64,000 bases of DNA, taken from NCBI GenBank assembly GCA_000165345.1, contig CM000436.1:480001-544000 (forward strand). Direction: 5' to 3'. Position numbers and translations under genes: made by a program. The notes below the pieces were generated by a model. It made no database searches. It saw nothing but the letters and a program-made list of their open reading frames with translations, and had not been told where the DNA came from. Positions 2,080 to 5,000 of this stretch are shown piece after piece. Position 1 is the stretch's first letter; the number at the start of each line of letters is the position of its first letter.

Positions 2080-5000
2080 ATGAACCGAAAGGTAGCAGGA
2101 ATACTTTCTTTAATATTGGTTCTATGCTTTCTTGGGCCTACATATCAGGCAAGTGGAGAAACTAGAAGTCTAAGACCTAATGATCAAAGTTCACAAATAG
2201 TAAACCCAGAATGGAGGTTTTTTACTAATGTTTTGGAGTTATTACTATTCCAACCGGGGAGGGCCATGGGCACACCTTGGCCAGAAAAGGGACCATACGA
2301 ATTTACCAAGTTATTTAATAATAATGATAAGCAAGATTTTTGTGAAAGATGCGTTAGATTAATGGACAATTGGGAGAATTCAGAGCCACATATGATTCTC
2401 TTTAGAGCTCCAAAATACTTTTCCAAATTTCCGCAGGTGTTTTACGTGGCTTGTGGATCTGTTGAATCGAAATTCTTACGTGATGAAAGTTCTAAAGGCG
2501 AAAATAATAATGAATCTGAATGTATTACTATTTACAACAAATTCAGTCTACACAAGTACTACGAAGGATTTAGTTCTGCTCCAACTTTAAGAAGACGTGC
2601 AGCATTCCCAGCTACACATACTGATCATAGACCATTTAAACCATTGTATGATCCATTATACAAGATACCTACAAAGACAACACAAATTAGAAAAACTACA
2701 ATTGATTACTCTAAGCACAAATATATTCCAATAATTCCAAAGAATACTGATAGTAAGCCAAGAGCTTCTTATCCAATTTCTCATACATCTGTGTTGGTCG
2801 ATTCAAAACATAGGTATGTTCCAATTACGCAGAAAGTTCCTGGACCTGATAGTCCTAAGAGTAGATACCCCAAGAACACATCTCATAAATACATTCCTAT
2901 TATTACGACAACTAAGAATGATGAAAATGCGGCCTTCCCAGCATCTAGAACTCAATATCCAACTAATCCAAATCATAAATTTGTTCCACCTGTAAATAAA
3001 CAATCTTCAAGCCATGACACAGCTTCTTTACCAGCTTCAAGAACTGGAGCTCTAATTGACTCAAATCACGGATATATTCCATTATATATGACATACAATT
3101 ACACCGAGAGTGCAGCATTCCCAGCTTCTAGAACCAGTTTCCCAGCTGATCCAAAGCATGGCTTTGTTCCTCTATATATTTTGGATAACTCAACAGAAAC
3201 AGCAGCTTTACCAGCTTCTAGAACTCGCTATCCTTCAGATATGTATCATAGATATATTCCATTATACATGGCATCCAATAATACTGAGAATGCAGCATCT
3301 CCAGCTTCTAGAACAAGGTTCCCAGTTAATACTAGGCACGGATTCATTCCTCTTTATATTATTTCTAACTATCATGAAACGGCATCTTCCCCAGCTTCCA
3401 GAACTCACTATCCAGTTGAACATAACCACGGCTTTATTCCTTTATATCAAAGGGTTTCATACTTTAATTTAACAGCATCTTTCCCAGCTTCAAGAACTAG
3501 TCAACCAACTGAGACCAAGCACAAATTTATTCCAATATTCGAGATTTACAACCAAACTGAGACTTCCTCACTCCCAGCTTCAAGAGTAGGAGCCATTATT
3601 GACACCAAGCATGGATATATTCCAATCTTCCAAAGAATTGCAAACAACGAAACTGCTTCATTCCCAGCTTCGAGGACAAGTCATCCCTCTGATCCAAATC
3701 ATAGATATATTCCTCTATTTGAGGTTATGGAAAACAATGAAACAGCATCTTTCCCAGCTTCTAGAACAAAGCTACCAGCTAACACTGAACATGGATATAT
3801 ACCTATTTTGGAGAGGATTTACTACCTTAATAGCACTGTAGCTCTTCCAATGTCTAGAGTAAGTGCTCCAATTGATACTAAGCACAATTATATCCCAGCT
3901 TTCAATAGTAATTTAGAGTATAATGGTGGAAATGCATCTTTCCCAGCTTCCAGGACTCAATATCCAGCTGATCCAAATCATGGTTTCATTCCTCTATTTA
4001 TGGTTGAGAACTCTACAGAAACTGCAGCATTCCCAGCTTCTAGAACAAAGTACCCAGCTAATACTGAGCATGGATTCGTTCCTCTATTTGAGTCTTCTAT
4101 ATTTGAAGGAAGAAACGCTTCTCTACCAGCATCAAGAACCCAATTCCAAATGGACTCTAGACATGCCTTTATTCCTCTATTTACTAACACGAACTATAGT
4201 GATCATAATGCATCTTTCCCAGCTTCTAGAACTCATTATCCAGCTGATCCAAATCATGGTTTCATTCCTCTATTTATGGTTGAGAACTCTACAGAAACTG
4301 CAGCATTCCCAGCTTCTAGAACAAAGTACCCAGCTAATACTGAGCATGGATTCGTTCCTCTATTTGAATCTTCAACATATGAAGGAGGAAACGCATCCTT
4401 ACCAGCCTCAAGAACTCAGTTCTTAGTGGATTCTAGACATGGTTTCATTCCTTTATTAATTTCAGATTATAGCTCCAACGAAACAGCTGGATTACCTGCT
4501 TCTAGAACCCATTATCCAACTGATACAATTCATGGTTTTGTGCCTTTAATTCCAGACTCTGAGTATAATGTTGGAAATGCATCTTTCCCAGCTTCCAGAA
4601 CTCAATATCCAGCTGATCCAAATCATGGTTTCATTCCTCTATTTATGGTTGAGAACTCTACAGAAACTGCAGCATTCCCAGCTTCTAGAACAAAGTACCC
4701 AGCTAATACTGAGCATGGATTCGTTCCTCTATTTGAATCTCCAACATATGAAGGAAGAAATGCATCTTTCCCTGCATCAAGAACTCAATTCCAAATGGAC
4801 CCTAATCATGGATTTGTTCCCTTATTTACAAAGTTATACCTTTATAATGATACTGCAGCTTTACCTGCTTCTAGAACTGGGCAACCTTCGGAAACAACCC
4901 ACGGATTTATTCCTCTCTTTGGATCTAATGAAAACTTTGAAACTTCATCTCTCCCAGCATCTAGAGTTAAGGCACCATCAAATCCCAATCATTCATATAT

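Follow-up and report, generated by a model that had tools for sequence, protein, structure and literature searches.

The repeat gene and its array

We analysed a stretch of 64,000 nucleotides (nt) of Cryptosporidium DNA, hereafter the window (GenBank assembly GCA_000165345.1, contig CM000436.1, positions 480,001 to 544,000 of the forward strand). It contains a gene for a repeat protein in which three blocks of 190 nt are almost identical. The gene has the layout of a predicted signal peptide, a conserved N-terminal domain, a long array of tandem units and a conserved C-terminal domain. Positions, numbered from the first base of the window, are collected in Table 1, where lengths of proteins are in amino acids (aa).

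Table 1. Features of the repeat gene in the window
Feature	Positions	Strand	Description and basis
Repeat-protein gene	2080-5451	+	complete coding sequence, 1123 aa + stop (3372 nt); open reading frame list; exact protein on 4 chromosome-scale contigs
Signal peptide, predicted	2080-2157	+	MNRKVAGILSLILVLCFLGPTYQASG; sole strongly hydrophobic 19-aa window
N-terminal non-repeat domain, conserved	2200-2589	+	~130 aa, 4 conserved cysteines; invariant columns in four-species alignment
Canonical tandem array	2920-5025	+	23 units of 90-96 nt (30-32 aa); unit parsing
Units 11-12	3646-3828	+	protein closest to a-b pair (…SDPNHRYIPLFEVMENNETASFPASRTKLPANTEHGY…); shared protein motif
Block A	3931-4120	+	units a+b (units 14-15) plus start of c
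131-nt core, in block A	3961-4091	+	100% identical in all three blocks; block alignment
c unit of copy 1	4108-4200	+	unit 16
Block B	4207-4396	+	units 17-18 (a+b)
131-nt core, in block B	4237-4367	+	as above
c unit of copy 2	4384-4476	+	unit 19
d unit	4477-4569	+	unit 20, only in higher-order copy 2; repeat periods, unit parsing
Block C	4576-4765	+	units 21-22 (a+b)
131-nt core, in block C	4606-4736	+	as above
First 31-mer unique to block C	4711-4741	+	contigs entering from the gene's 3′ side end here
c unit of copy 3	4753-4845	+	unit 23
C-terminal non-repeat domain, conserved	5206-5448	+	GPRAAFPATHT … WEHF … GNPYVDT … YGFGDL … ILSQL; alignment; C. felis fragment 67% identity

The array holds 28 units anchored by the motif PA[ST][RH]T, 23 of which are canonical and follow the consensus N-x-[ST]-A-x-[FL]-P-A-S-R-T-x-x-P-x-[DN]-x-x-H-G-[FY]-[IV]-P-L-[FY]. 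Repeat finding returned a family of 19 copies at 90/93-nt spacing, and Tandem Repeats Finder and a second repeat search independently detected periods of 276 and 369 nt over the base period of 90-93 nt. These longer periods are whole numbers of base units, three and four respectively. The higher-order structure is thus [a b c][a b c d][a b c], and the three blocks are its a-b parts. The period of copy 2 is 369 rather than 276 nt because of its extra d unit. The three c units have in common the signature RTQF(Q/L)(M/V)D, which is found in no other unit. Two open reading frames in the +2 frame of the forward strand, at 3923-4426 (167 aa) and 4568-5185 (205 aa), were dismissed as stop-free by-products of the periodic sequence.

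When the blocks were aligned, block B lay in register with block A at an offset of 276 nt, and block C at 645 nt. Identical bases numbered 181/190 between A and B, 182/190 between A and C, and 185/190 between B and C, an overall identity of 95-97%. The three near-identical blocks reported in an earlier note, made from the sequence of the window, are therefore real. The starts that it gave for the first two also stand; the third, given as 4577, is off by one, since the in-register offset places it at 4576. The peptide that it gave for the blocks is correct for A and C, and block B has H for Q at one position. The longest exact runs between pairs of blocks were 131, 137 and 135 nt, whereas outside the blocks no two places in the array shared an exact run of more than 24 nt. 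A 40-nt piece of the core occurred three times in the window against 0 expected by chance, all within one open reading frame.

Homogenised and diverged units

Divergence between units was measured in 253 pairwise comparisons of the 23 canonical units, using the first 78 nt of each. The mean identity of all pairs was 64% (standard deviation 9), which bears out the earlier observation that the other units have diverged substantially. The a-a and b-b pairs from the three blocks took precisely the first six ranks. Identity was 91-97% for the a-a pairs, with a synonymous divergence (dS) of 0.05-0.13, and 99-100% for the b-b pairs, with a dS of 0-0.09. The c-c pairs were only 73-81% identical, and over the full 93-nt unit their dS was 0.75-2.4 and their non-synonymous divergence (dN) 0.23-0.30; the median dS across the array was 1.03. 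Within the core there were 0-1 synonymous differences over approximately 31 synonymous sites. The dN/dS ratio of the c units was about 0.1-0.3, indicating that they did not diverge by positive selection.

Differences along the 276-nt higher-order copy were strongly clumped: not one of 100,000 random placements reached the identical run that was observed (P<1e-5). Each copy is thus a mosaic in which a sharply bounded identical tract lies beside older divergence, synonymous sites included. Because synonymous sites are identical in a-b and near saturation in c, protein-level selection cannot explain the identity. The near saturation of the c units also indicates that the [a b c] triplication is old, and a single recent duplication of the whole higher-order unit does not account for the pattern, because its divergence would be uniform. 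The earlier reading of the blocks, as recent expansion or gene conversion, is upheld in that they reflect recent homogenisation (dS of 0-0.13 in a and b). The dS of the c units speaks against a fresh duplication of whole blocks.

The explanation that we prefer, with a probability of about 0.78, is short-tract gene conversion over an older triplication. An old triplication would first have given the [a b c] higher-order repeat, and the a-b segments would later have been made identical by non-reciprocal recombination, that is, by short-tract intragenic gene conversion. Out-of-register exchange, either between sister chromatids or at meiosis, might add to the homogenisation if confined to a-b. 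The identical stretches have their end points in motif sequences common to all units, and we infer that the 131-nt core is where the conversion tracts overlap. Blocks A and C resemble each other over a longer stretch, at both ends, than either resembles block B, and separate conversion events with different end points would give such a longer A-C tract. The mechanism itself is ordinary, gene conversion being a textbook route to concerted evolution of coding tandem arrays; it is the host gene that is uncharacterised.

Several points weigh against gene conversion. It is read from the pattern of one haplotype, with no donor/recipient polarity and no conversion event between isolates observed. A recent duplication of a-b alone, with or without part of c, into pre-existing c-like units might, strictly speaking, have occurred instead. 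The long assemblies on which the comparison of isolates rests (see below) may descend from few strains, and when long-read assemblies are polished with short reads, near-identical repeats can be made artificially alike.

Units 11-12 are the part of the array whose protein is most similar to the a-b pair. Their nucleotide identity to the three a-b blocks is 67-68%, near the array background of 64%, and dS is 0.7-0.9, so that paralogy to a-b rests on the protein motif. They may be an earlier copy of the a-b type that the recent homogenisation did not reach.

According to the earlier note, the pattern implies ongoing unequal crossing-over. The blocks would then be recent tandem duplications of whole blocks, at a locus that is expanding and contracting and is length-polymorphic. 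We consider this unlikely. The copies are in frame and in tandem and the super-periods are multiples of the base unit, as unequal crossing-over would produce; copy number differs between two sister species (1085 aa in C. xiaoi, 1020 aa in C. bovis), and without unequal exchange the [a b c] triplication could not have arisen in the first place. Whole-block duplication predicts uniform identity along the block, however, whereas a-b has hardly changed (91-100% identity, dS up to 0.13) and c is approximately 20-27% diverged. The spacings are also unequal (276 versus 369 nt), and the gene has one length in five chromosome-level assemblies, among them that of a distinct isolate with insertions and deletions (indels) elsewhere in the region. 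To conclude from the blocks that such exchange is ongoing was therefore an overreach.

Isolates, assemblies and orthologs

The same 1123-aa protein is encoded, without change, on four chromosome-scale contigs, including CP029787.1 of GCA_031892065.1 (1.34 Mb). Over the 18 kb around the gene, 18 substitutions and 6 indels separate a fifth assembly, GCA_048859185.1, from the window. The repeat gene nevertheless keeps its length of 3372 nt there and has three single-nucleotide polymorphisms (SNPs; 2149, 4425 and 5274), none of which lies in the a-b blocks; that at 4425 is within the c unit of block B. No length variants were thus present among the five chromosome-level assemblies, all of 1123 aa. 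The length polymorphism between isolates that had been expected was not seen in this small sample, which does not refute it. Nor was the proposal of a typing marker borne out: copy number did not differ among the five assemblies, and an array of 2.1 kb with a perfect 131-nt triplicate is not reliably sized from routine short-read data.

Short-read assemblies were examined through Logan contigs, found by means of exact proteins of neighbouring genes. Six contigs, from six runs, were inspected, and approximately 30 further contigs were grouped as similar places. All six stopped at exactly position 4711, at a distance of 741 nt from the stop codon. The first base that separates block C from the other two is 4741, where block C has a cytosine and both A and B have a thymine. 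Contigs end at 4711 because a de Bruijn graph with k=31 must branch there. The common break therefore indicates that the core is present at least twice in the short-read isolates, with the same base setting the copies apart; on copy number, short-read assemblies are uninformative. Contigs of C. felis (positions 1-1059 of the contig) and C. serpentis (positions 8001-8669) likewise end inside the array, and it is for this reason that their annotated proteins are short (204 and 223 aa respectively). The predicted trouble with short-read assembly is thus strongly supported.

The locus is therefore a reproducible assembly breakpoint. Short-read SNP calls in the three blocks are unreliable, as reads map to more than one copy, and comparative gene or orthology tables will mis-score the gene as truncated or divergent and so under-call it.

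The same behaviour raises the question of an assembly or polishing artefact, in which the true copies would be less alike, fewer or more numerous, their identity having come from polishing with multi-mapped short reads. Short reads demonstrably cannot resolve the locus, and common data or a common reference might underlie the four identical assemblies. Against this, the reading frame is intact through all copies, and the c and d units and linkers that flank the blocks differ from one block to the next. GCA_048859185.1, which was sequenced independently, shows the same structure with SNPs of its own. In addition, the graph can break at 4711 only if the 31-mer 4710-4740 is present in the genome at least twice and is followed by different bases at 4741, as it is in the window. 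An artefact is accordingly very improbable.

Homologs over the full length, at 40-43% identity, were found in C. xiaoi, C. ryanae and C. bovis (E = 1e-224 to 3e-217, query coverage 77-96%). Their names merely describe the sequence: 'YLP motif containing' for the proteins of C. bovis and C. xiaoi, and 'HxYxP motif containing repeat' for that of C. ryanae. A search with the C-terminal domain had as its sole match a C. felis fragment named 'XP motif-containing', whose assembly PMC11130048 assigns to C. felis. The assembly GCA_051169045.1, listed as C. serpentis in PMC13466520, contained an N-terminal fragment that matched profile positions 10-182. When 1.84 billion representative proteins were searched with a profile, all matches were from Cryptosporidium apart from one spurious, repetitive low-complexity sequence, and contigs from Joint Genome Institute (JGI) metagenomes gave no match by protein pattern or core DNA.

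Gene order is shared as well. In the window and in C. bovis the gene lies between an upstream ubiquitin-like gene (approximately 1240-1285 aa) and a downstream gene of about 700 aa on the opposite strand. The C. serpentis contig has the same upstream gene as the window, and that of C. felis the same downstream genes (365 aa, SURF6, DEAD). One syntenic locus per genome was found in every species seen, and the gene is single-copy, genus-wide and Cryptosporidium-specific. The suggestion of an antigenic-variation mechanism finds no support here: the locus is single, conserved and syntenic, the window contains the core only in the three blocks, and there is no sign of a donor archive.

The orthologs resemble the window gene in synteny, signal peptide, N-terminal four-cysteine domain, units of 30-35 aa with PASRT and H-x-[FY]-x-P, and C-terminal domain. 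They differ in higher-order period, which is 276/369 nt in the window, 201 nt in C. bovis and 90/180 nt in C. felis. Lengths across the orthologs are 1123 (window), 1085 (C. xiaoi), 1020 (C. bovis) and 979 aa, a difference of two units separating the sister species C. xiaoi and C. bovis. In C. bovis a 201-nt higher-order repeat of two units is present in 3.2 copies at 89% identity, and an exact run of 78 nt is shared by units 1302 nt apart. C. xiaoi has an exact repeat of 73 aa, and C. felis at least four copies of a homogenised 90-nt monomer, ETASFPASRTSFPTDPNHNFIPLYMVSNYS. In the four-species alignment invariant columns are concentrated in the terminal domains. These domains and the outermost units align one-to-one between species, whereas the array interior does not.

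Copy number and architecture thus evolve on a between-species time scale. Concerted evolution that homogenised the interior of the array and conserved its edges, independently in each Cryptosporidium lineage, would give each species an architecture and length of its own.

Least probable of the explanations considered, and hardly to be credited, is that selection has kept the copies identical, either as three required peptide modules or as a nucleotide-level element (RNA structure or an embedded signal): in its favour are the good conservation of the a-b peptide and a similar protein motif in units 11-12, but synonymous sites are identical too (0-1 differences over approximately 31 sites, against an array dS of about 1) and the orthologs homogenise different units. 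Constraint at the level of RNA was rejected separately, as the folding energy was no better than that of shuffled sequences (z = +0.37; 128/200 shuffles fold at least as well) and there was no Rfam match.

The encoded protein and comparison with known systems

The signal peptide was called by reading the sequence and its hydropathy, without a predictor. By hydropathy there is no second hydrophobic segment in the protein, and the C-terminal domain is without a hydrophobic tail. The protein contains 23 N-x-S/T sequons, compared with 11.3 (standard deviation 3.0) in shuffles of the same composition. Nineteen of the 23 sit 4-9 residues ahead of PASRT, approximately one per unit. The protein is thus predicted to be secreted and is probably heavily N-glycosylated, and on these features we favour a structural extracellular glycoprotein.

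A Pfam scan of the 1123-aa protein gave no family, even at E values up to 1, and an exact look-up of the protein in a clustered protein collection found it absent. In the literature there was no paper on a 'YLP motif' or 'HxYxP' in Cryptosporidium, and none with the repeat peptide. No expression, localisation, glycosylation or serology data for the repeat protein were found in the literature. AlphaFold2 models had predicted local distance difference test (pLDDT) scores of 28.5 at full length, from an alignment of four sequences, and 42.9 for a six-unit segment, from a pseudo-alignment of unit windows of four species, both too low to inform on the fold.

A more specific proposal, which we hold to be doubtful, is that the protein might be a major N-glycan-bearing structural part of an extracellular structure such as the oocyst wall, its inner tethers or the sporozoite coat. 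It would carry one glycan per 30-aa unit, and concerted evolution would retune the number and sequence of units in each species. If this were true, the architecture of the array would be a species- or lineage-diagnostic character, possibly host-adaptive. Being conserved in the genus, predicted to be secreted, and furnished with about 20 positionally conserved sequons, the gene is a reasonable candidate for tagging. The peptides TQYPADPNHGFIPLFMVENSTETAAFPASR and YPANTEHGFVPLFES… are search targets for the protein in mass-spectrometry data from oocysts and sporozoites.

The N-terminal domain ends at a junction with the array where a polybasic TLRRR is followed by AAFPATHT (2584-2622, aa 169-181). 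The junction is kept in C. bovis, C. xiaoi and C. ryanae, with the C. serpentis fragment reading TRKRR-AAFPVSHT; processing by a subtilisin- or furin-like protease might take place there. A degenerate unit of the PRAAFPATHT type is found on both flanks of the array. The N- and C-terminal domains share the motif W-[ER]-[HF]-F-x-[NE]-V-L, as PEWRFFTNVLEL at 2212-2238 (aa 45-53) and NWEHFTEVLKV at 5284-5310 (aa 1069-1077). Over positions 2001-6000 the G+C content of the repeat gene is 37-38%, against approximately 28-31% around it, with negative GC skew on the coding strand.

Elsewhere in the window there is an open reading frame of 3400 aa at 39981-50183 on the reverse strand. Other neighbours are housekeeping genes, for SURF6, a DEAD helicase, a Pelota/eRF1-like protein, VPS9, ELMO, ENTH, phosphomannose isomerase, XPB helicase, NAD kinase and a dynamin-like protein. 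The SURF6 protein encoded in the window (13221-13994, reverse strand) occurred in exactly this form on only five contigs, whereas the neighbouring 365-aa protein was indexed in 52 blocks; the window isolate therefore seems to carry a rarer SURF6 allele.

Three known systems resemble the array. The first is that of the intragenic tandem repeats in fungal cell-surface adhesin genes (FLO, ALS), reportedly described by Verstrepen et al. in 2005. These too are said to be in-frame coding repeats of about 100 nt in secreted or glycosylated proteins, subject to intragenic recombination, concerted evolution and change in size. There, frequent size alleles within populations are documented, whereas none was seen here in the available assemblies, and the sequences are unrelated.

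In alpha-satellite DNA, whose higher-order repeats are homogenised by conversion or unequal exchange, as here, higher-order copies are far more alike than neighbouring monomers, and the edges are more diverged and orthologous between species. In contrast to alpha-satellite, the present array is protein-coding, has only three higher-order copies, and is homogenised over part of the higher-order unit. Within the genus itself, the Cryptosporidium typing loci (the serine-codon repeats of gp60 and the mini- and microsatellites used in multilocus variable-number tandem-repeat analysis, MLVA) are likewise coding tandem repeats in genes for secreted glycoproteins. Those loci have units of 3-15 nt that vary by slippage, whereas the array described here is built of 90-nt units and 276-369-nt blocks, and its length was constant in the assemblies examined.

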